A DNA stretch of 64,000 nt from an uncultured Poribacteria bacterium (GCA_958296135.2 CATQHZ020000001.1:2880001-2944000), one strand, 5' to 3'. Numbered from the stretch's first letter, positions 2,468 to 35,555 are shown. Notes: generated from the sequence alone by a model not told the origin. Made by a program: numbers and translations.

Positions 2468-3907
2468 CTATAGGGTGATAAATTCGTGCTGCTGCTTGAA
2501 GAGGGCAGCATCAATCCCCGCGAGGCTCTGTGCCAGCACAAATTGTTTCTCAACTGTCGCTTTAAACGCTTGGAACTTTTCCTCAGAGATGACAGTCATG
2601 CCGTGGGCGTAGATGCTTCGATTCCGTGTATCAGGTAGACTCTTTAACGCATGCCAATTAAGGCCTTTGGCAATCTCATCGTCCAGCGCGTGTAGGACGA
2701 GAAATCCGTCTACCAATCCAATTGATGTTGGAAGAGCAAACACATTTGGATATCGGTAAACCTCCATCCGTTTCCTCTTATACCGGTCGAAAAGCGCGCC
2801 CTCGTCAAATGCCGAATAATCCGGATCGTCAGTCCAGATTCCGTATAGCGCAAGCCGGTGTTGCTCTACCCACTCCAGAAGACGATAGAGCAGCAGACAT
2901 GCCATATCCAGTTTTCTCTGTTCTTCCCGTCGGAGCGCGCTGTGATAGAGCATAAACGCGAAGTGAAATCCATCGGGAGCCTGAAGGGCAAGCCATTCGT
3001 TCTTGCTGAACGTCAGCAAGGTTTGCAGCACCCCCTCTTGTTTACGAAGGCGAGCCTCTGCTTGATACAGCTGCGCCAACCGGCTTAGCGTCGAAAATTG
3101 CTGGATGAGTTTCAACAACTGCTCCAAGCTGTTGCTCGCCTTGCCAAAATCGAGTGCATCCCACGCCTCGTATGTCTCGCAGAGGAATCCGTATGCCTCG
3201 CAAGTTGTGGCTGTGTTCGCATCGCCAACCTGTCCTCTGAGCCGGCGAAGAACACGTTGTGCGCCAGCGTAGTCGTGGGCGTTATAGAGATTTTTCGCTC
3301 TCTCAATCTCCAAATCACCGAACACTGTGTAAGGGTTATCCAAAAGGATTAAGTGCTCACTACCGGGTTCAGGCTTGTTACCTAACTCTGGGTAGATTTC
3401 GCTACAGCCAACATAATAGATATCGGCCCCAAGCACAGCACATGCCATTGTCAAGCCGCTAACCATGGGCTTTCTTCCGCCGGTGATGTCCGCCGCAAGA
3501 TGCTCGGGACGTCCCCAATCGTTGTAAAGCGTCATGATCTTCTCGTAGACCTCAACGATATGAGTCCCGTCAACTTCGCGCAGCTGAATCTGCTCGTGCG
3601 GCAGTTGCGTTTCCTCCTGAATTTGCGAAAGGAATTGCTCGCCTTCCTGCGTATAGAGGAGGCCGACACGTTTCGGTTTCATACCGAGTATTGAGAGAAT
3701 TAGCGGCTCGGGCGCGGAGCCTAACGTTAGGATGAGGCCATCATATACCTTTGGTGGCCGGTTCCCCGGGTCACTGAAGGTTGCTTTGATGAATGGAAAA
3801 ATATGCTTGTCGTAGAAAACGAGCGCGGTGTCTTCCTCGGCGCGGCTAGTTCGCGCCATGTTTTTCCATTCTTGAACGTGCGCATCAAATTCGGGTTTTG
3901 TCAACAT
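2468..3907 (-). CDS. CARF-HEPN protein, TIGR02710 (Cas02710)-like, stand-alone
   Basis: 479 aa; CARF motifs LILTLGSAPEPL and ADITGGRKPM; C-terminal HEPN-like RNRSIYAHG; RBS GAGAGGG upstream. Confidence 0.8.
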   Translation of the reverse strand: MLTKPEFDAHVQEWKNMARTSRAEEDTALVFYDKHIFPFIKATFSDPGNRPPKVYDGLILTLGSAPEPLILSILGMKPKRVGLLYTQEGEQFLSQIQEETQLPHEQIQLREVDGTHIVEVYEKIMTLYNDWGRPEHLAADITGGRKPMVSGLTMACAVLGADIYYVGCSEIYPELGNKPEPGSEHLILLDNPYTVFGDLEIERAKNLYNAHDYAGAQRVLRRLRGQVGDANTATTCEAYGFLCETYEAWDALDFGKASNSLEQLLKLIQQFSTLSRLAQLYQAEARLRKQEGVLQTLLTFSKNEWLALQAPDGFHFAFMLYHSALRREEQRKLDMACLLLYRLLEWVEQHRLALYGIWTDDPDYSAFDEGALFDRYKRKRMEVYRYPNVFALPTSIGLVDGFLVLHALDDEIAKGLNWHALKSLPDTRNRSIYAHGMTVISEEKFQAFKATVEKQFVLAQSLAGIDAALFKQQHEFITL

Positions 3908-4040
3908 TTTTATCCCTCTCTTGATTGCGATTGCATCATCATTCGAGAATATTCACACATCCGCGAGTCCGAGTGCCGCCTCGCGTCGGCGACTGCTCAC
4001 GAACTCACGCAATTGACTTCAGACTGTTCTGATTGTATCT

Positions 4041-4069
4041 AGTATATCACAATAAGCAAAAATTGGCAA
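4041..4069 (-). promoter_or_regulatory. sigma70-type promoter of the CARF gene
   Basis: TTGCCA-17 nt-TATACT with extended -10 TG on the minus strand. Confidence 0.6.
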
Positions 4070-4304
4070 ACAAAATTGTTCGCGAAATGTCGCTGATACG
4101 TTATTAACAAGTTTATTTCTCAAGACATCCAAATTTTGGGCACCCATTGTTAGGGCTGGCCCCAGCGCAAGCATCATTTTTCCTCCAAAAAGTTTTTCAC
4201 GGTGACATGATAACACAACCTTCGGTTGCATCGCAATAAAAACAAGAACGTTGACATCGACGTTGTTGATGGCTCCGTTTTCGATGCGATTTTTCCCTAA
4301 AACC

Positions 4305-5219
4305 TCACGGCTTTCCTAACGCGGCGGGTGCTTCAGCGCGGCCGACGAAACCTGCGAGTACCGCTAAGCAAAGCACATAAGGCAGCATCAACAGCAGTTG
4401 ATGCGGAATGCCCCAGCCTAACGCCTGAAAACGGACATCTAGCGCGCCGCCGAGTCCGAAAAGCAATGCCGCGCCGCACGCTTTCACCGGGTGCCATTTC
4501 CCGAAAATGACTATCGCTAATGCAATAAATCCGCGTCCCACCGTCATGTTCGGCGTGAAATAGGGGACATCCGCCAGCGAGAGGTAGCCGCCGCCGATGC
4601 CGGCCATCGCGCCTGCAAATAAGAGGCACCCCGTGCGCATCAGTGGGACGTTTGTGCCAGCCGCTGCCACTGCCTTCGGATGCTCACCGCACGCACGAAT
4701 GTGGAGCCCCGGGTGCGTGTGGTAGAGGAAAAAATAGACACACGGCATCAGTAGGAACGCGAGAAAGACTAAAATGTTGTGCGAGAAGAATGCCCGGCCA
4801 AAAAAGGATATCTGTGAGAGGAACGGGATTTCTAACGCCTCAAAGGCATGCACCCGTAGCGAGCTCCCAGTAATGCCGAAGAGGCGTTGGTAAAGCACCT
4901 CTGTTAAGCCTAAGGCGAGCAGCGTGATGGCAGTGCCGATAATCACCTGGTCTGCGCGCAAACGGATGGCGAAGAACGCGAAGAGCGCGGCGGTGCAGAC
5001 ACCGGCGAGCCCGGCAAGCAGTAGCCCACACCACGGCGCGAGGATGGGGACATGCGCCATGTAGAACGAACCCACCATGCCAAAGAACGCGCCCATCAGC
5101 ATCATGCCTTCAATGCCGATGTTGATGACACCGGCGCGTTGCGATACGACTTCGCCTAATGCGGCAAATAAAAGCGGTGTCGCGCCTCGAATCGTTGCAG
5201 AAAGTGTTTCTTCAAGCAT
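4305..5219 (-). CDS. ABC transporter permease (nucleoside/sugar CUT2-type)
   Basis: ATPLLFAALGE..GVINIGIEGMML, GRGFIALAIVIFGKW, APAALGKP. Confidence 0.9.
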   Translation of the reverse strand: MLEETLSATIRGATPLLFAALGEVVSQRAGVINIGIEGMMLMGAFFGMVGSFYMAHVPILAPWCGLLLAGLAGVCTAALFAFFAIRLRADQVIIGTAITLLALGLTEVLYQRLFGITGSSLRVHAFEALEIPFLSQISFFGRAFFSHNILVFLAFLLMPCVYFFLYHTHPGLHIRACGEHPKAVAAAGTNVPLMRTGCLLFAGAMAGIGGGYLSLADVPYFTPNMTVGRGFIALAIVIFGKWHPVKACGAALLFGLGGALDVRFQALGWGIPHQLLLMLPYVLCLAVLAGFVGRAEAPAALGKP

Positions 5220-5280
5220 TTTTGTGTTTCCTAGAGGCGCGCTTGCAACGCGCGCTACGGAGTTTGTGAAGAGTCGGTGC

Positions 5281-6324
5281 CTACGTTTTCGATAGAGATT
5301 CGTTGTGTCTCATGAATTTCATGGAACTATATCCGATAACAGACAACAAAATCGTCGCCTGCATGACAAGCGTCACTTTATCGGAGATGCCAACACCGCG
5401 TTGCATCGCGTACGAACCTGTCGTGAGCGCGCCGAACAGCAGTGCCGCCGCCATTGTCAACAACGGGTGCAGCTTCGCCAGCAACGCCACCGCAATCGCC
5501 GTGTAACCATAGCCGGGCGAGAAGTTGAGGAACAGCCGGCGCGTCAGTGCCATCAGTTCAATTGCGCCGCCGAGCCCTGCCAAGGCCCCGCTGATAAAAA
5601 AGACGCGGAGCATGTTTTGAACAATTGAAATTCCTGCTGCTTCTGCTGCCGCGGCTCCCTCGCCGACAGCGCGCAGCTGATATCCAAACGTCGTCCGAAA
5701 AAGGACGAACGTGAGGATAATCGCGAGGATAATCGCGATGACGATGCCGAGATGGATGCGGTGCGGCGGAAACAGGCGCGGTAGAAACACCCATTCCGCC
5801 AGCCGGTCGCTCTGCGGCCCGCGTTGCGATGCCTCTTGTAAAGGGCCGCCGTCTACCATGAGACTGACGAGGTAGATGGCGACATAGTTCAACATAATCG
5901 TGCTGATGACTTCGTTCACGCCGCGCGTTACTTTGAGGAGTGCGGGAATCAGTGCCCAGGTGCCGCCGGCCAGGGCCGCGAGGCAGAGACAGAGTGGCAC
6001 GGCTATCCACGGTGTCGCGGGTAAGAGTGCGGCGAGTTTCGTGCCGAACCATGTTGCTGCCAGTGCGCCCATCAAAAACTGTCCCTCCGCGCCGATATTC
6101 CATATCCCGCATCGGAAGGCGATAGCGACAGAGAGCCCCGCCATGAGAAACGGCGTGCTTTTGACAAGCGTCTCTCCTAATTTTCTGCCGTTGCCGAACG
6201 CGCCGCCGACGGCCGCCGTGTAAGCTTCTAACGGGTTATAGCCGCACACGAGGATGATGATGCCGTTCGTCACAAACGCGCTTATCAGAATCAGTGCCGG
6301 TATCCCAATAGTTCGTTTTAACAC
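5281..6324 (-). CDS. ABC transporter permease (nucleoside/sugar CUT2-type)
   Basis: NIGAEGQF, NEVISTIMLNY, GYGYTAIAVALL; GTG start with AAGGAG RBS. Confidence 0.9.
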   Translation of the reverse strand: MLKRTIGIPALILISAFVTNGIIILVCGYNPLEAYTAAVGGAFGNGRKLGETLVKSTPFLMAGLSVAIAFRCGIWNIGAEGQFLMGALAATWFGTKLAALLPATPWIAVPLCLCLAALAGGTWALIPALLKVTRGVNEVISTIMLNYVAIYLVSLMVDGGPLQEASQRGPQSDRLAEWVFLPRLFPPHRIHLGIVIAIILAIILTFVLFRTTFGYQLRAVGEGAAAAEAAGISIVQNMLRVFFISGALAGLGGAIELMALTRRLFLNFSPGYGYTAIAVALLAKLHPLLTMAAALLFGALTTGSYAMQRGVGISDKVTLVMQATILLSVIGYSSMKFMRHNESLSKT

Positions 6325-6342
6325 CAGGGTGCTCCTTTCTCA

Positions 6343-6620
6343 TCAGAATCAAGAGGTTTTGCAGGTGTTCCAGGGTTACGTTTGCTTTGACAAGGCGAGG
6401 GACAGGCCCTCGCACTACGGGCTGTTTCAGAATCAAGAGGTTTTGCAGGTGTTTCAGGATTATGTTTGCTTTGACAAGGCGAGGGACAGGCCCTCGCACT
6501 ACGGGCTGTTTCAGAATCAAGAGGTTTTACAGGTGTTTCAGGATGACGTTTGCTTTGACAAGGCGAGGGGAGCCCTCGGCGATTCGTGCTCGCCGGGTTT
6601 TCCCTCGCGCTACGGGCTGT
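6343..6620. repeat. Tandem repeat, 84-bp period x3, each unit carrying a REP palindrome
   Basis: TCAGAATCAAGAGGTTTT.. begins at 6343, 6427 and 6511; the third unit has the extended REP variant. Confidence 0.9.
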
Positions 6621-24835: not shown

Positions 24836-26725
24836 TTACGGTTCTGGTTTGCGTGGATTTAACCCTGTTTCATTTTTCTGTTCTGTTCGCTGCAGACAGG
24901 GAAGCGTGATGTCAAATGCTGTGCCGATGGCAAGGCTGGCATCTACGTCAATGCTTCCATCGTGCTCCTCAAGAATTTTTCGGCTGATGTAGAGCCCGAG
25001 CCCTGTGCCCTTCTGTTTTGTCGTATAGAAGGGATGGAAGAGATGCTGCACCTCATCGGGGGCGATGCCGGGGCCGGTATCCTGAATCCGGAGAAGCACC
25101 GTTTCCTCTGCCTGCCGATATTCTGTCTGAATTTTCAAGGTGCCGCCTGTTTGCATCGCTTCTCTAGCGTTGTAAAAGAGATTCAGGAGGACCTGGGTGA
25201 TTCCCTCTGGGTTCACATTGATTTCGGGGTATGGGGTATCTCCATATTCTGTCACCACGTGAATGCTCTGCCGTTCTAATTCGGCTCGGCAGATGGAGAG
25301 GCTGGCCTCAAGCAATTCGTGGATATCACTGCGTTTGGCGAATTCCATCGCTGGTTTGCTGAAGGCGAGCAGCTGCTCAATGAAGCGGTTCAGCCGGTCT
25401 ACTTCTTTGATGATAATCTCTGTCCATTCGTGGACTTCCTCTTGTGAATCGGCGGCATCGCGAGGGACAGGCCCTCGCGCTACGGAGCCAGGAGCGGCGG
25501 CAGCATCGCGAGGGACAGGCCCTCGCGCTACGGAGCCAGGAGCTGCAGCGGCATCGTGAGGGACAGGCCCTCGCGCTACGGAGCCAGGAGCGGCGGCAGC
25601 ATCGCGAGGGACAGGCCCTCGCGCTACGGAGCCAGGAGCGGCGGCGGCATCGTGAGGGACAGGCCCTCGCGCTACGGAGCCAGGAGCGGCGGCGGCATCG
25701 CGAGGGACAGGCCCTCGCGCTACGGAGCCAGGAGCGGCGGATGTCGGTGGCCTGGCTGCGGTGTGTTGGAGAAGTTGCGTTCCCAACCGAATGCTGCTGA
25801 GCGGGTTCCGCACCTCGTGCGCTATTGTTCTCACCAACCGTCCTAGCGTCGCTAGACGTTCGGATTCGACAAGTGCGTCAATTGTCTGCTGAATTTTCAC
25901 CCGTTGCGCGATGATGGAGGCGATAATTGTCAACAACCGCCTGTCATCATCTGCGGAAAATTCGTCGGATGCCTTGTCAATCGTCAACGTGCCGACGACA
26001 TGCTCTTCAACGATGACGGGGATGCACCAGAAGGCGATGGCATCTTTGGATGCTACGTTCTCGGGTTCAAAGAGTTTGACGTAACTTCGGGGGAGCCGCG
26101 TTTGCGGCACCCCGATGGCTTTGCCGGAGGCAAGCACCCGTTTCTGAATATCCTCCATCTGTCCATCGGTGCCGCGTTTCATTTCAGCGGGGGTAAGTCC
26201 TAAAACGACTTCGGCAGATGCTGTCACCTTTCCATCTTGATAGAGATGCAAGGCACCGCGATAGATGCCGAGACGATTCGAGAGAATTTCGATAATCTGC
26301 TGAAAGAGTTCCTCCAATTCGAGGTTCGCGTTCGCCGTTTGGCTCACCTCAAAAAGGGTAGACAAATCCCGCACCCGTTTCTCTAAATAGGCGTTCGCGC
26401 TGTTTATTTCTGTTAGCTGTTCCCCGCGAATCCCTTGTTCCGTTCGGAGCTGCCGAATGACGTGCATCATCCCCAAGACGAGGACCGGATAGAGGAACAA
26501 GACGAGAATGCTTGCCATTTCGGTTGGATAGCGAGCCACATACACCAAATTTGCCATCGTTGTCAGTGCGAGCAATCCTCTTTGGCCGCGTTGGCTGGCG
26601 TAGATAACGGCGAGAATCATCGTGCCGTAGTAAGCATGGCTCACGGCGTGATAGTAGTGCGGCACCTCGAACAGATGCACTAACAGGTTGGCGATGAGCA
26701 CGAGAAATGTCAGGAAAATTGCCAT
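24836..26725 (-). CDS. Membrane sensor histidine kinase with NifA-like GAF domain and in-frame REP array
   Basis: N-terminal TM helices, GAF, H-box AHEVRNPL, QVLLNLFYNA, DTGPGI, GTGLGL. Confidence 0.92.
   Translation of the reverse strand: MAIFLTFLVLIANLLVHLFEVPHYYHAVSHAYYGTMILAVIYASQRGQRGLLALTTMANLVYVARYPTEMASILVLFLYPVLVLGMMHVIRQLRTEQGIRGEQLTEINSANAYLEKRVRDLSTLFEVSQTANANLELEELFQQIIEILSNRLGIYRGALHLYQDGKVTASAEVVLGLTPAEMKRGTDGQMEDIQKRVLASGKAIGVPQTRLPRSYVKLFEPENVASKDAIAFWCIPVIVEEHVVGTLTIDKASDEFSADDDRRLLTIIASIIAQRVKIQQTIDALVESERLATLGRLVRTIAHEVRNPLSSIRLGTQLLQHTAARPPTSAAPGSVARGPVPRDAAAAPGSVARGPVPHDAAAAPGSVARGPVPRDAAAAPGSVARGPVPHDAAAAPGSVARGPVPRDAAAAPGSVARGPVPRDAADSQEEVHEWTEIIIKEVDRLNRFIEQLLAFSKPAMEFAKRSDIHELLEASLSICRAELERQSIHVVTEYGDTPYPEINVNPEGITQVLLNLFYNAREAMQTGGTLKIQTEYRQAEETVLLRIQDTGPGIAPDEVQHLFHPFYTTKQKGTGLGLYISRKILEEHDGSIDVDASLAIGTAFDITLPCLQRTEQKNETGLNPRKPEP
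25451..25738. repeat. 6 x 48-bp REP tandem array inside the kinase CDS
   Basis: GGCRGCATCGYGAGGGACAGGCCCTCGCGCTACGGAGCCAGGAGC.. period 48; encodes PGSVARGPVP(R/H)DAAAA. Confidence 0.97.
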
Positions 26726-27503: not shown

Positions 27504-27977
27504 TTAGATGTTTTCCATTGCTTTATAGAGATTGGCCATTTCAATGCCGGCGACGGCGGCTTCAAATCCTTTGTTTCCCGCTTTGATACCGGCGCGTTCA
27601 AGGGCCTGCTCTATCGTGTCAGTGGTAATCACGCCGTAGATGACAGGCGTGTCGGTTTGCATCGCGATGTTTGCGATGCCTTTGGCACTTTCGCTGGCGA
27701 CGTAATCGAAATGCGGTGTTGCGCCGCGGATGACTGCGCCGATGCAAATGACGGCATCGTATCGGCGGCTTTCGGCGAGGCGTTTGGCGGCCCCGGGAAT
27801 TTCAAAGGCACCGGGTGTCCAACACACGTCGACAGCGTCAAGGTTTACGCCGTGGCGTTTCAGTGCATCGAGTGCGCCGGCGAGGAGTTTTTCGGTGACA
27901 AAGTTGTTGAATCGGCTCACGGCGATGCCCAATTTGAGGCCGTCGCCGTTGAGGTTTCCTTCGTAAACAGTGGGCAT
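27504..27977 (-). CDS. ribH: 6,7-dimethyl-8-ribityllumazine synthase
   Basis: [33 protein letters not shown]. Confidence 0.97.
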
Positions 27978-28076
27978 AGTTATGTGATGCTCCTGAGGCT
28001 GAGGGTTAGCAATTTTTGAGCCCGTGATTGCGGTTCGGACTGAAGCAACAAGACGGCTAAATAGTCTCGCGCTTAT

Positions 28077-28676
28077 CTATTTCTCATCCCGACCGGCTTT
28101 GCGTAAAGCCGAGGCGAGCTCTTCAAGTTGACGCGCAACCTCTCCGATATCAACGGCTATCCCTTGGAGGATAAGACGATAACAGAGGTCTTCCCAATTT
28201 TGGTACTGCTTCCACGCGAATTTACAGATTGAGAGCCGAATGTCAAAGCCAAGGGGAAGTAATAACGGCTGGATTCTATCAAAACGGACACCCGCTGAAA
28301 CGCTCAGAGCGTCTCGGATTGACTTCTCCTGATTCAGGACGAGATTGACAATATTTTGACATTCTTTTCCTGTCAGATCTTCCTCCTCTATAATCGCGAG
28401 GGCCAAAACCCACTGATCTTCTTCGCTTGTGAGTCTGGAGATTTGATAGCCTTGCTCCACGCCAATTTGCCCCTCATCAATTTTCCACCGAATGCCTTCC
28501 GGAAGTTGAAAAAGGCGATGCCGCGTATTCCAGAACTTGGCTGACATCCCGAATTGCTGTGCGATGGTTACGTAGGAACCATAATCCCGGTATAAGACAT
28601 CTACAGCTTCCCCAATTTCAGAGTGCATTTTCCCTTCCGGGGCAGAGAGATGTTTTCGTGCAGATGCAGCATTCAT
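28077..28676 (-). CDS. ParB/Spo0J-like HTH protein lacking the N-terminal CTPase domain
   Basis: IAQQFGMS..RLFQLPEGIRWKIDEGQI..QISRL..EEDQWVLA aligns by eye with the Spo0J central domain; AGGAGG upstream; 2 nt after the upstream stop. Confidence 0.6.
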   Translation of the reverse strand: MNAASARKHLSAPEGKMHSEIGEAVDVLYRDYGSYVTIAQQFGMSAKFWNTRHRLFQLPEGIRWKIDEGQIGVEQGYQISRLTSEEDQWVLALAIIEEEDLTGKECQNIVNLVLNQEKSIRDALSVSAGVRFDRIQPLLLPLGFDIRLSICKFAWKQYQNWEDLCYRLILQGIAVDIGEVARQLEELASALRKAGRDEK

Positions 28677-28678
28677 TG

Positions 28679-29536
28679 CTACCTTGATTCCCTCCTGAGT
28701 GTTTCTGCCACCATGTGACCGATTATGGCCTGTTCGTCGTCTAGGCCTCTCTCTTCGCCCCATTGTAACAAGTCGTCATACAGTTCGGCAGGAATTGCGT
28801 ACTGGACAACGCGTCTGGAGTCTCCCCTCCTGCGCGTTACATTGGCATTCAGGGCGGCGATAGAGACACTATGCCCTAGTTGTTCTAGTGCCTTAACAGC
28901 ATGTTTCCGCGTGTCTCTATCAAGTCCAAGAATCCAGGATGCTCGCTCCCTCATGGAGTCTTGTGACTGGCTGACACGCGCTCCATCGTAAGTATTTCTC
29001 ACAATTTTGGCTGCAGTCTGTGAGGGAAGGATGCCTTTATCTACCATTTGCTTAAGGTCATCGGGCAATGCGGATAGGGCATAATACCTCATAACGGTTG
29101 GGACTGTGACACCAAGGTAGGCCGCGGCAAGTTCAAGTGCTTCCTGCGCCGTATACCCATCGCCGTTGTACCGCTTGTAAATCCGCTCTACCCAGTACGC
29201 CCGGTCGCTATAGGTCAAATCCCCGCGCACCTCGTTTTCAAGCCATGAACGTTGAATGGCTTGATCGTCGTTGAGGTCAATGACGAACGCGGGAATTTCT
29301 TCCAAGCCGAGCGATAAACACGCCTTTAACCTGCATTGCCCGGTGACATTCTGATAGTCGTACCGGGAATCGGAATCGGGGTGGGGCCGAACGATAATCG
29401 GTTGATCTGGCCAATAACCGTGTTGCCGGATAGAGGCTTTGACTTTCTCAACGTTCTCTTCCACACCTTGCCGACGCACGTTGATAGTGCTATTCGGATC
29501 AATGCGGCGGAGATCAAGTGTTTGGACTGTATTCAA
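28679..29536 (-). CDS. ParB N-terminal (ParB/Srx fold) domain protein with HTH and RHH-like C-terminus
   Basis: SIRQHG..QPIIVRP, VTGQCRLKA, SWLENEVRGDL; TTG start with AGGAGA RBS (ATG 29608 alternative). Confidence 0.75.
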   Translation of the reverse strand: MNTVQTLDLRRIDPNSTINVRRQGVEENVEKVKASIRQHGYWPDQPIIVRPHPDSDSRYDYQNVTGQCRLKACLSLGLEEIPAFVIDLNDDQAIQRSWLENEVRGDLTYSDRAYWVERIYKRYNGDGYTAQEALELAAAYLGVTVPTVMRYYALSALPDDLKQMVDKGILPSQTAAKIVRNTYDGARVSQSQDSMRERASWILGLDRDTRKHAVKALEQLGHSVSIAALNANVTRRRGDSRRVVQYAIPAELYDDLLQWGEERGLDDEQAIIGHMVAETLRRESR

Positions 29537-29841
29537 TTTTGTTCTCCTATTATGAGCGTAAGTAAGATGCTGCACCGTTTGCCTATGCGTCTGCAGGGAA
29601 TTCTCCATCGCGGAGATGTTTATCAAAGCGTTGAGGCGACATAGGCATATATTCGCATTTTTCAGTTTATTCGTCAAGAAAAATTTTCTGAACCCAGAGA
29701 CATTGGGTTTTTGATTCCCACATCGAGAATCCTCTACTATAGAACCTACATCCCGATCATCGTCGTAGAGCGAGATTGGCGGGTGCTGCTGCGTTTGAGA
29801 TTAGGCGATCTCAAACTACAGAAACAGAAGTTCATTGGGTA

Positions 29842-31068
29842 TTACTCCTCGTGTAAGAGGAGGTGCCCCAATTTCGTGCGCTTCGCCTGGAGATAGGCGC
29901 GGTTAAAGGGATTCGGGCTCGTCTGCAAGGGGACGCGCTCCACAATTTCTAACCCGTAGCCGCTCAACCCCTTTACTTTTTGTGGGTTGTTTGTTAACAA
30001 GCGCATTTTTTTCACGCCGAGTGCTGCAAGGATTTGCGCGCCGATGCCGTAATCGCGAAGATCTGGTGGGAAACCGAGGCGTTCGTTCGCCTCGACGGTA
30101 TCCAACCCTTCGTTATCTTGTAATTGATAGGCGCGGAGTTTCTCCTTGAGCCCCATGCCTCTTCCCTCTTGCCGCATATAGAGGAGGATGCCTCTGCCTT
30201 CTTTCCCAATCATCTCTAATGCCAGTTGGAGTTGTTCGCCGCAGTCGCATCGGAGTGAGCCGAACACGTCGCCGGTAAGGCATTGCGAATGCACGCGTAC
30301 TAACACTGGCGCGGCATCGGCAACGTCCCCTTTCGTCAGTGCGATGTGCGTCCTGGGCATATCCGTGCTACCTTCGGCGATGTCACTACTTTCGTAAGCG
30401 TGGAGTTTGAAGTGTCCGTGCGCCGTGGGGATGTCTGCCGTCGCGATGCGCTTGACAAGCGTCTCCGTGCGCAGCCGATACGCAATCAGATCGGCGATAG
30501 TGATAATTTTCAGTTGATGCTTTTCGGCGAACTGCATGAGTTCTGGGACGCGTGCCATGGAGCCGTCATCATTCAGCACTTCGCAGAGTACCCCTGCGGG
30601 ATAGAGCCCGGCGAGTTGGGCCAGATCGACGGTGGCTTCGGTATGTCCGGCGCGTCGGAGAACGCCGCCCGGTTTCGCCTCCAATGGGAAGATGTGTCCG
30701 GGCCGCACAAAATCGGAGGGGACAGCCGTTTTCTCGACGAATTTTCGGATGGTATAGGCGCGCTCCTGCGCGGAAATGCCGGTTGACACTTCCTTCGCGT
30801 CAATCGTCACCGTAAACGCCGTTTGCATCTGAGCGGTATTGTCCATCACCATTGGTTGGAGTTCCAACTCAGCGAGGCGTTCGGAACACGTTGGGAGGCA
30901 GATGAGCCCTCGGCCGTATGTCGCCATGAAGTTGATGGATTCGGCGGAGACTTTTTCGGCGGCCATCACCAGGTCGCCTTCGTTCTCCCGGTCTGGTTCA
31001 TCAACGACGATAATGATTTCGCCATTCTCGATGGCAACTATGGCTTCTGGAATTGTGCTAAATGTCAT
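29842..31068 (-). CDS. ribBA: Bifunctional DHBP synthase / GTP cyclohydrolase II
   Basis: [49 protein letters not shown]. Confidence 0.97.
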
Positions 31069-33718: not shown

Positions 33719-34342
33719 CTAGTCTTTTAAGTTGTCTTCCCCCGCGCAGGCTTTGAGTCCCTCTATGAATACCTGAAAACTTCGCGAACGATTGCGGCTC
33801 GGCTCCATGTGCAGCGCAATGTTTTGTGCCACCTTTATCTTGCGTAACCACTTCGGGTAGTATCTTTTCAGCAGGCGTTCAAGGGCTTCACAGGTGCCGC
33901 CGGTGATTGCATCAGGATCCCGATATTTCGCCCGGTTTTGGAAAGTTTTTGAGACGTTAGGATAGGCTATCCTCAGTGCCTCAATGTCTCCAAAAAACCA
34001 TGCCTCTAACTCCTCGACCGCCAACCGATTGACGACGCGAAACTCGCCTTGGGAATTCGGATGGGATTTCGTCAAAAACCCTGCCTCGCGAGCAGCCTGT
34101 TCTAACCGCGCCTTCAGTACCCGGCAATCTTGCCTGTCTTCATCAATAAGCACAAATATTCGCCAGTCGGCAGGCAGCCATCGGCGGTAGCCCTTCAATC
34201 GCGACGGCAGTTTTTTTAACAGGTCTTGTTTGCCTTCAAAGACATGGAAGTGGAAACTGACATTGTCGGCAAGAATCTTTGGCAAGATAGCCTGCAGTGC
34301 CGCTTCGGCAGAGGGTTCTTCCAATAAGAATTCAATGTGCAT
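33719..34342 (-). CDS. DUF4276 family TOPRIM-like protein
   Basis: [39 protein letters not shown]; overlaps the ATPase end. Confidence 0.8.
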
Positions 34343-35555
34343 GCGTGCCTCCCTTGGGGCCGCCTGCATTTGTCAGCGGGTCGCCGATATCAAAGTAATT
34401 TTCCATCCAGAGCTGCCCCAACTTCGCACCGGTTTCCAGAAAATCCTTGATACCTAGCATATCCGCTGTCCGTTTGCAATTTGTAAACCCTTGTTTATCA
34501 CGATAAAGCACCCAGACCTCTTCGGCGCGGAGGCCGTTGATGAAATGAGGCGAATGCGTGGTAATCATCAGTTGAGTGAACGCTGATGCCTCGCGGCACT
34601 CATCTGTCAAACCGGCCAACAAGCGGGGATGTAGGTAATTTTCGGGTTCCTCAATACCTATTAATTCCGGCGGTTCTGCATCGTGTAACAACGTCAAGTA
34701 GGACAGCATCTTCAAGGTGCCATCGGAGGCGAACTTGGCTAAGATGGGTTGCTCAAACGGCACATCCTTAATCTGTAACAGGAGGCGGCCATCCTGCATC
34801 AGTTCTGCATCCACCCGTTCTAAGCGTGGCACCCGATCCTTCAAGGTTGAAAGAATACGCTTCAGCTGCTGCGGGTGCTGTTCTTTCAGATACTGGATGA
34901 CGTTCGGCAGATTGTCTCCCGTTTCCGAGAGCCGTTCTTGCGGGCCCGCTTCGGGCACCCCGCGCGTGGCATCGGCAGACAAGTAGGAGAGATGCCAGCC
35001 GGTAATAAAGCGGCGCAAGGCACTCACGCGAGGGTGCCGCGCCAGTTGTCCAAGTGCGCTGACGGCCAGCATTGATGCATCGTCAAGTTGTTCATCAATT
35101 CGCGTATCCTTCATATCGGGTGCTTCACCAGCGATGACCCGGCCTTCGCCTTGACGAAAATCGAAGAAGCGAAACGGTTGCCCCTTGCTCCCGCGCCGCC
35201 ATCGTAGGGATTCAGTCTCAACATGCACCCCTTTCGGGTTTTCGTTAATTGCTAAGCGGTAGGTGATGATGGGTGTCTTCGGTTTCTCGCGATATTTCAA
35301 TTCAAATTCTATCGCGCCGTCACTCCCGCGGGTTCGGAGTTCCTTAAAACGTCCTCTTTTGTCCCACGCCCGGCGCAAACCCACCGTGAAGCATTCGGAG
35401 AGAAACGCGAATACATCAAATAGGGTTGATTTCCCGCTGCCGTTCGGCCCTAGGAAGGCTGACATCGGTGTTATTTTTCGTAATTCGACATCCCGCAGCG
35501 CGCGATAGTTCTTCACGCGTAAGGATTCAATACGGGGGACAGTCTGTTTCGCCAT
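34332..35555 (-). CDS. ABC-type AAA_21 ATPase
   Basis: [33 protein letters not shown]. Confidence 0.92.

Follow-up and report, generated by a model that had tools for sequence, protein, structure and literature searches.

The locus considered here raises the question of why two genes of ParB type, without a ParA, stand within a riboflavin operon. It lies in a stretch of 64,000 nucleotides (nt) from an uncultured Poribacteria bacterium (GCA_958296135.2, CATQHZ020000001.1:2880001-2944000), referred to as the window; coordinates are those of this whole stretch. On the minus strand the gene order is ribD, ribE, ribBA, g1, g2, ribH, where g1 (28679..29536) encodes an orphan ParB-family protein of 285 amino acids (aa) and g2 (28077..28676) encodes a protein of 199 aa with a ParB-type DNA-binding domain only (DUF7119/HTH_ParB). 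The reading that we favour, and to which we would give about half of our confidence, is that the two form an accessory unit in which an orphan ParB-type nucleoside triphosphate (NTP) switch works with a cognate DNA-binding partner, and which is not a partition system. The observations behind it are the domains and motifs of the two proteins, their pairing, the mobility of the pair and the purifying selection on both genes.

The first gene encodes an orphan ParB-family protein

The TTG at 29536 is the most likely start of g1, because alignments of homologues begin at the first residue of the 285-aa form; AGGAGA is found 6 nt upstream of it, and the stop codon TAG is at 28681-28679. The protein matches ParB_N (PF02195) in Pfam (E 3.1e-13, 50 bits against a cut-off of 26.3) and parB_part (TIGR00180) in NCBIfam (68.4 bits against 58.45), and its best PDB sequence matches are Thermus Spo0J (1vz0, 3.9e-11), ParB (6t1f) and Noc. 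An AlphaFold2 model, with a predicted local distance difference test score (pLDDT) of 88, is matched by Foldseek to ParB, Noc and KorB over the N-domain and the helix-turn-helix (HTH), with E down to 2e-10. The HTH is of ParB type, the Foldseek alignments to ParB, Noc and KorB chains extending over 220-230 columns; the Pfam domain HTH_ParB is not detected in g1 itself. An earlier note, made by a model from the sequence alone, had described a ParB N-domain with GQCR and ENEVR motifs and an HTH, and Pfam, NCBIfam, the Spo0J alignment and Foldseek agree in this.

In the alignment to Spo0J (1vz0), GQCRLKA of g1 stands opposite GERRYRA, and ENEVRGD opposite ENLQRED. G66-Q67-C68-R69 is invariant in 18 of 18 aligned family sequences, C73, H39, H52 and N19-V20-R21-R22 are likewise invariant in these, and E100, N101 (at least 90%) and E102 of the ENE sequence are conserved. 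Box II, the phosphate motif of the ParB-CTPase (cytidine triphosphatase) fold, is defined as GxxR in the available text of Kaljevic et al. (bioRxiv 10.1101/2025.10.10.680097). g1 agrees with this Box II in the form GQCR, and with Box III (ENxxR), the first arginine of GERR being replaced by cysteine. Nucleotide gating of g1 is plausible, since the GxxR and ENxxR phosphate motifs are both kept; which nucleotide is bound by a ParB-CTPase fold is not predictable from sequence, according to the same text (Kaljevic et al., bioRxiv 10.1101/2025.10.10.680097).

The C-terminal region of g1 is helical, and the monomer model consists there of a coil followed by two helices. Tails resembling a ribbon-helix-helix (RHH), which had been proposed for both g1 and g2, found no support: PDB and Pfam searches with a profile of the g1 tail gave no RHH, and the tails of g1 and g2 are unalike (hhalign probability 0.2%). 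The coil and two helices of the monomer model and a weak RHH_5 match in the tail of the paralogue described below (E 0.06) are all that speaks in favour of such tails. The ParA-binding motif [LIVF]G[KR]G[LIVF] is absent from g1. No DndB or DGQHR family is among its NCBIfam matches at E up to 1, and its only match in PADLOC-DB v2.0 is to the ParB part of the MTase_II model (4.8e-6). g1 is a member of the ParB superfamily that stands outside any ParABS system, is not DndB and is not a known component of PADLOC v2.

The second gene encodes a ParB-type DNA-binding domain only

g2 runs from an ATG at 28676 to a stop at 28079-28077, with two bases (CA) between the stop of g1 and its start. In Pfam, the match to DUF7119 (PF23433) is marginal (31.0 bits against a cut-off of 30), HTH_ParB falls just under its cut-off (22.4 bits against 22.6), and a ParB_N domain is absent. 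The structural model (pLDDT 84) matches the Spo0J/ParB DNA-binding domain over residues 1-119. Residues 1-109 align with 1vz0 (Z 10.8, root-mean-square deviation (rmsd) 2.5, 105 aligned) and residues 2-119 with 6s6h (Z 10.4, rmsd 3.2, 112 aligned). The DUF7119 and HTH_ParB scores and the fold are thus in accord with the earlier description of g2 as a gene starting 2 nt after g1 and resembling only the HTH/helical domain of Spo0J. The C-terminal part is helical, and the nearest clusters in the ESM Atlas are stand-alone 'ParB HTH domain-containing' proteins. PADLOC-DB v2.0 has no match for g2, and no paper on DUF7119 was found in the literature.

Both genes are under purifying selection, the ratio of nonsynonymous to synonymous substitution (dN/dS) being 0.09-0.15 for g1 and 0.13-0.21 for g2 in comparisons with relatives (here and below, a set of 60 genomes, most of them more than 90% complete and many closed).

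The two genes form a unit with a patchy distribution

g1 is found in 11 of the 60 relatives and g2 in 14, and in all 11 relatives with g1 it is directly followed by g2. A scan of GTDB, with one genome per species and the g2 alignment as query, gave 36 loci. By record title, 23 of these are from Poribacteria, seven from Dehalococcoidia, one from Anaerolineae and one from Chloroflexota, and loci were also found in two Verrucomicrobiota (Pedosphaera and Limisphaerales) and in one 'Bacteriovoracaceae' record. In 27 of the 36 loci g2 is preceded by g1, and every one of the 13 loci from records not titled Poribacteria is among these 27. In the loci with open reading frames listed, the stop of g1 and the start of g2 overlap or are a few bases apart, as with the 2 nt in the window, and translational coupling of g1 and g2 counts among the observed features of the pair. 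The pairwise distances of g1 and g2 are correlated (r 0.81, 23 loci); such a correlation would be expected from co-inheritance alone as well. Across 40 loci no further gene is conserved beside the two, and the genomic contexts vary from neighbourhoods with restriction-modification (RM) genes, toxin-antitoxin genes, integrases and insertion sequences (IS) to nuo, atp and ilvC operons. The g2 family is small, with 161 of 1.84 billion representatives at E 1e-3 and 26 at 1e-30. Homologue searches gave 333 sequences for g1 and 211 for g2.

In the tree of g1, which holds 27 rows (the four rows with a disrupted g1 were left out), the Verrucomicrobiota rows are a distant clade, and the position of the Chloroflexota rows relative to the Poribacteria clades is an unresolved polytomy; no more than one origin for Poribacteria is required by the starred branches. 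The g1 of the window is 60-70% identical to those of Chloroflexota records, as against 48-54% between Poribacteria families. These identities suggest that the pair has been transferred between phyla, of which the topology of the g1 tree is no proof.

The copies of g2 that stand alone (L042, L047, L049, L050 and L053-L056; at about 2850-6600 in each) are 56-61% identical to g2. They always come after a protein of about 1000 aa, of which the N-terminus, judged by eye, is like an extracytoplasmic function (ECF) sigma factor and the C-terminal part clusters with a BNR/sortilin-like protein.

A fused form of g1 and g2 (P0393, one metagenome record of 499 aa) was rejected as a candidate. Its two parts are joined via a frameshifted g1 tail, and it is probably the result of a mutation or a sequencing error.

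The pair is an insertion in the riboflavin operon

All four rib products are confirmed by Pfam. ribD (33536-32430) and ribE (32332-31685) come first on the minus strand, ribBA (29842..31068; DHBP synthase plus GTP cyclohydrolase II) is the upstream flank of the pair, and ribH (27504..27977; lumazine synthase) is the downstream flank. The gap between ribBA and ribH is about 1.84 kb in the window. In the genomes of the same genus and family used for comparison, this spacer is only 110 bp (G001, same genus), 128 bp (G012) and 160 bp (G030), and the segment has no counterpart there. DNA matches to relatives end at 27994 and resume at 29834, which gives 27995..29833 as approximate limits of the insertion.

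The composition of the segment differs from that of its surroundings. GC content is 0.520 in g1 and 0.483 in g2, against 0.543-0.584 in the rib genes and 0.539 in the genome, and at third codon positions it is 0.545 and 0.48, against 0.57-0.65 in the rib genes. None of the window's 54 matches to repetitive extragenic palindromes (REPs) lies between 25724 and 33600, so none is in the insert, and no parA, integrase or nuclease adjoins g1-g2, the flanks being rib genes. The earlier note had claimed an insertion that splits ribBA from ribH, is richer in AT than the rib genes, lacks the common REPs in its coding part and has no parA, integrase or nuclease beside it, and in each of these respects it was right. 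The g1-g2 segment is supported as a horizontally acquired insertion relative to the same-genus and same-family genomes. No direct repeats or target-site duplication were found flanking it.

The same spacer is occupied by REPs in G002. In G004 (L036), which belongs to another genus, it holds an insert of about 1.8 kb that appears by eye to be a tnpB element of IS200/IS605 type. The ribBA-ribH spacer seems to be a recurrent landing place for inserts.

A paralogous pair adjoins dndCDE

The genome of the window encodes a second ParB-like protein of 310 aa, with GQRR, which is the sole other ParB_N match there. Its partner is an HTH_ParB-only protein of 236 aa, with overlapping stop and start. This paralogous pair is outside the window, at G000:C1:3049.9-3056.5 kb (locus L083, 2866-9456). 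In hhalign comparisons, the 310-aa protein matches g1 with a probability of 95.6% over about 227 columns and the 236-aa protein matches g2 with a probability of 96.4%. As the paralogous pair has the same architecture, this architecture must be older and wider than the family of the window.

The paralogous pair is followed by a metallo-beta-lactamase/beta-CASP-like protein of 340 aa, and dndC, dndD and dndE adjoin (PADLOC E 7e-202, 2e-212 and 7e-33). The six-gene group is complete in four of four holders, the window's own genome and three of the 60 relatives. The three genes of the group that are not Dnd genes matched no Dnd, Pbe or Ssp restriction model of PADLOC, and the 310-aa protein matched no DndB or DGQHR model. 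One branch of the architecture is linked to a cluster for DNA modification that includes a nuclease, and the 310-aa protein, its partner and the beta-CASP-like protein are a candidate new companion module of DNA phosphorothioation. This is a concrete link from the two-gene architecture to defence based on DNA modification.

ParB_N (PF02195) is above its cut-off in 14 of the 60 relatives, as g1 in 11 and as the second ParB-like protein in three, and no canonical chromosomal ParB was found among the 60 Poribacteria relatives searched with this domain. As no other ParB was found in the relatives sampled, the family could be studied without interference from a chromosomal ParABS.

Comparison with known systems

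In the KorB-KorA system of RK2, a ParB-family NTP-switch clamp acts with a separately encoded HTH partner, KorA latches KorB, and ParA is not needed for regulation, as far as the available text describes it (PMC11790492). The model of g1 matches the KorB chain 8qa9_A (Foldseek E 2.3e-9, TMq 0.51). However, KorA is a small repressor with no relation to ParB, and in this it differs from g2, which is itself a DNA-binding domain of ParB type. KorB is carried on a plasmid together with the ParA homologue IncC and has known operators, whereas at g1-g2 no plasmid, ParA or operator was found. BisD is a further precedent for a ParB-family clamp with a partner, in what is accessible of its description (PMC12409273).

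Orphan ParBs are common and often found on mobile elements (Kaljevic et al., bioRxiv 10.1101/2025.10.10.680097). The orphan proteins of the ParB-CTPase fold in that survey share with g1 a position outside parAB, the absence of a ParA-binding motif, a link to horizontal transfer and GxxR, but no obligate partner gene consisting only of a ParB DNA-binding domain is described in its available text. Chromosomal ParB/Spo0J and Noc share the N-domain and HTH fold with g1, which differs from them in having no ParA, no parS that could be recognised, GQCR for GERR, a different C-terminal region and a sporadic distribution (11 of 60 relatives). DndB carries a DGQHR motif, which the GQ of GQCR and GQRR recalls. 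Like the 310-aa paralogue, DndB is a ParB-superfamily protein tied to dnd clusters, in the accessible part of the account (PMC10853773). However, neither g1 nor the paralogue matches a DndB or DGQHR model, and g1 is not beside dnd genes.

Orphan ParBs as a class and stand-alone ParB-HTH proteins elsewhere are already known. What is new is the conserved pairing of g1 and g2, the invariant GQCR, the bare two-gene unit found across phyla and the paralogous branch linked to Dnd. No paper on the g1-g2 pair was found, and the supplements of the orphan ParB survey (bioRxiv 10.1101/2025.10.10.680097) may list such proteins. Orphan ParB-fold proteins are a large and mostly uncharacterised pool of NTP switches, to which g1-g2 adds a clean and very compact case, in which the obligate-looking partner is itself a ParB DNA-binding domain and the unit lands inside housekeeping operons.

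Possible functions of the pair

If the pair is a switch with a cognate partner, g1 would bind a specific DNA site, and NTP binding would drive its switching or closure, as in other proteins of the ParB family. g2 would be the DNA-bound partner that modulates g1, in the way that KorA acts on KorB, or the partner of BisD on BisD. Given such a switch and such a partner, the pair would act on DNA, whether to silence, to regulate or to oppose foreign DNA, rather than in partitioning the chromosome.

Several observations weigh against this interpretation. The cysteine in place of the first arginine of GERR is invariant, and NTP binding by g1 may be altered. The co-occurrence of g1 and g2, which the earlier note had made decisive, holds in the 11 relatives and 27 GTDB loci given above but breaks down at eight of the 36 loci, all in one genus, which have g2 alone; a further one of the 36 is cut by a contig end. 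Because these eight carry the solo g2 beside an unrelated large protein, g2 can work without g1. g1 is disrupted in four of the 31 paired loci, and in G040 an IS1595-type transposase gene interrupts g2; because of these losses the pair must be dispensable. The comparison of the g1 and g2 profiles with each other is weak (probability 6%). A shared DNA site did not emerge either: the flanks of the 31 loci have no k-mer in common beyond Shine-Dalgarno words and those of close kin, palindromes inside g1 and g2 are present in about the number expected by chance (some share a codon position between loci, but these loci are all related), g2 has no peak of conservation at synonymous sites, and no palindrome family in the genome at large shows a link to the pair.

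The best of the alternatives, although in our judgement an unlikely one, is a module of defence or against mobile elements, in which foreign DNA would be sensed or coated by g1 together with its HTH partner, and the family would have split off, as a stand-alone form, from modules that act alongside nucleases and DNA modification. The paralogous pair beside dndC-dndD-dndE and the beta-CASP-like protein in four of four genomes would be expected under this explanation, as would the patchy distribution across phyla and the RM, DarT/NADAR, MazF, HNH, Uma2, HicB or PIN neighbours at some loci, and the available text of one study considers proteins of the ParB superfamily in the role of conflict effectors in Dnd systems (PMC10853773). 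However, no effector domain is found in or next to the pair in the window, and the surroundings at many loci are ordinary housekeeping genes (rib, nuo, atp, ilvC). No Dnd gene is present in any g1-g2 locus or in the window, and at the level of whole genomes the presence of DndD shows no association with that of the pair (DndD in 5 of 11 genomes that have the pair and in 16 of 49 that do not, Fisher p 0.49). PADLOC recognises no system, only the ParB part of a methyltransferase model for g1 and nothing for g2, in keeping with the earlier statement that no named defence system could be assigned. The enrichment near defence genes that the earlier note had envisaged finds no support, as a DNA methylase lies within 3 kb of the pair in six of 31 loci, which is not above a genome background of about 0.115 (binomial p 0.14). 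The window's own genome has about 68 N6_N4 and about seven D12 methylase matches above cut-off in 5.19 Mb, or roughly one per 70 kb, and arguments from methylase neighbours are undermined by so dense a background.

A more elaborate proposal, which we regard as improbable, would make the architecture a modular unit of DNA conflict in symbiont communities that has not been described before, with one branch wired to Dnd and, as the other, a free-standing, self-spreading pair with g2 as its brake. The Dnd branch would then be a phosphorothioate-linked restriction or sensing system with a beta-CASP nuclease in place of DndFGH or Pbe, the gate-less g2 would be a built-in antidote or brake on a DNA-clamping g1, and the cysteine of GQCR would give an altered chemistry.

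Equally improbable, in our view, is addiction of the toxin-antitoxin kind, in which g1 would be harmful if unrestrained, for example by spreading on or compacting DNA, and would be neutralised by g2, which as a ParB without an NTPase gate would occupy g1 sites or form dead-end complexes. The unit is indeed minimal, 2 nt separating the g1 stop from the start of g2 in the window, and stands alone inside operons without mobility genes; decay is frequent (four of 31 g1 copies disrupted), a solo second gene exists, as orphan antidotes do, and a ParB-fold ATPase toxin with an immunity protein has been reported, in the accessible text of a preprint (bioRxiv 10.64898/2026.05.05.722872). However, no toxin or antitoxin family is matched by either protein, its own genome has just one copy of the pair, and the solo g2 keeps its synteny and seems to have been inherited vertically within one genus.

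There is very little chance that the pair is what is left of a partition or maintenance cassette from an integrated plasmid, integrative and conjugative element or prophage. The best family matches are to partition ParB/RepB and to phage 'ParB-like partition protein' models, and an integrase or transposase is near the pair in G040, G052, G041 and G032. However, ParA and the ParA-binding motif of g1 are both missing, a search with g2 through 72,556 plasmid and 50,697 phage records gave nothing, and alignments of g1 and g2 found no relative of either gene in IMG/VR. The same two genes, moreover, recur at 31 places that differ in context, where no further genes of such an element are conserved, and both are under purifying selection. 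The earlier note had named a fragment of an ordinary parAB or prophage locus as an outcome that would refute its reading, and the lack of parA, of plasmid or phage matches for g2 and of IMG/VR relatives for both genes speaks against such an origin.

A local regulator of the riboflavin operon is scarcely credible, because the contexts of the loci vary and none of the 30 other paired loci is in a rib operon, although the pair does lie between ribBA and ribH and no minus-strand terminator-like site was called between g2 and ribH.

DNA sites and other features of the window

The upstream region of g1 holds several DNA features. A promoter-like stretch is found on the minus strand at 29649..29684, with TTGACG at 29677-29672, and resembles the spacer of the sister genome G002 and the region upstream of g1 in G004; its -10 is poor in the window, and the scanner made no call. 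The palindrome AACCCA-N7-TGGGTT is present at 29691..29709, but its suggested role as an operator is disfavoured, as it is not conserved upstream of g1 at other loci.

Sequence comparison also reveals a hairpin repeat, GTTTGAGAT-N6-ATCTCAAAC, at 29793..29816, just downstream of ribBA. It has two copies in its own genome, and most of the query's 23 matches in the sister genome G001 and 44 matches in G002 land on it. Elsewhere in the genome, a perfect palindrome of 16 bp, CTCCCGTATACGGGAG, has four dispersed copies (C1 at about 280, 3276, 4379 and 4724 kb), and an 18-bp form of it has three; no link to g1-g2 was found.

Directly upstream of ribD, a DUF4276 protein is encoded on the minus strand at 33719-34369 (Pfam 1.2e-32). 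On the other side of the pair, six copies of the core of the genome's common REP are found at 25470-25723 (minus strand) with a period of 48 nt. These six copies are in frame within a sensor histidine kinase gene (26725-24836), where they encode the repeated peptide AAAPGSVARGPVPRD/H.

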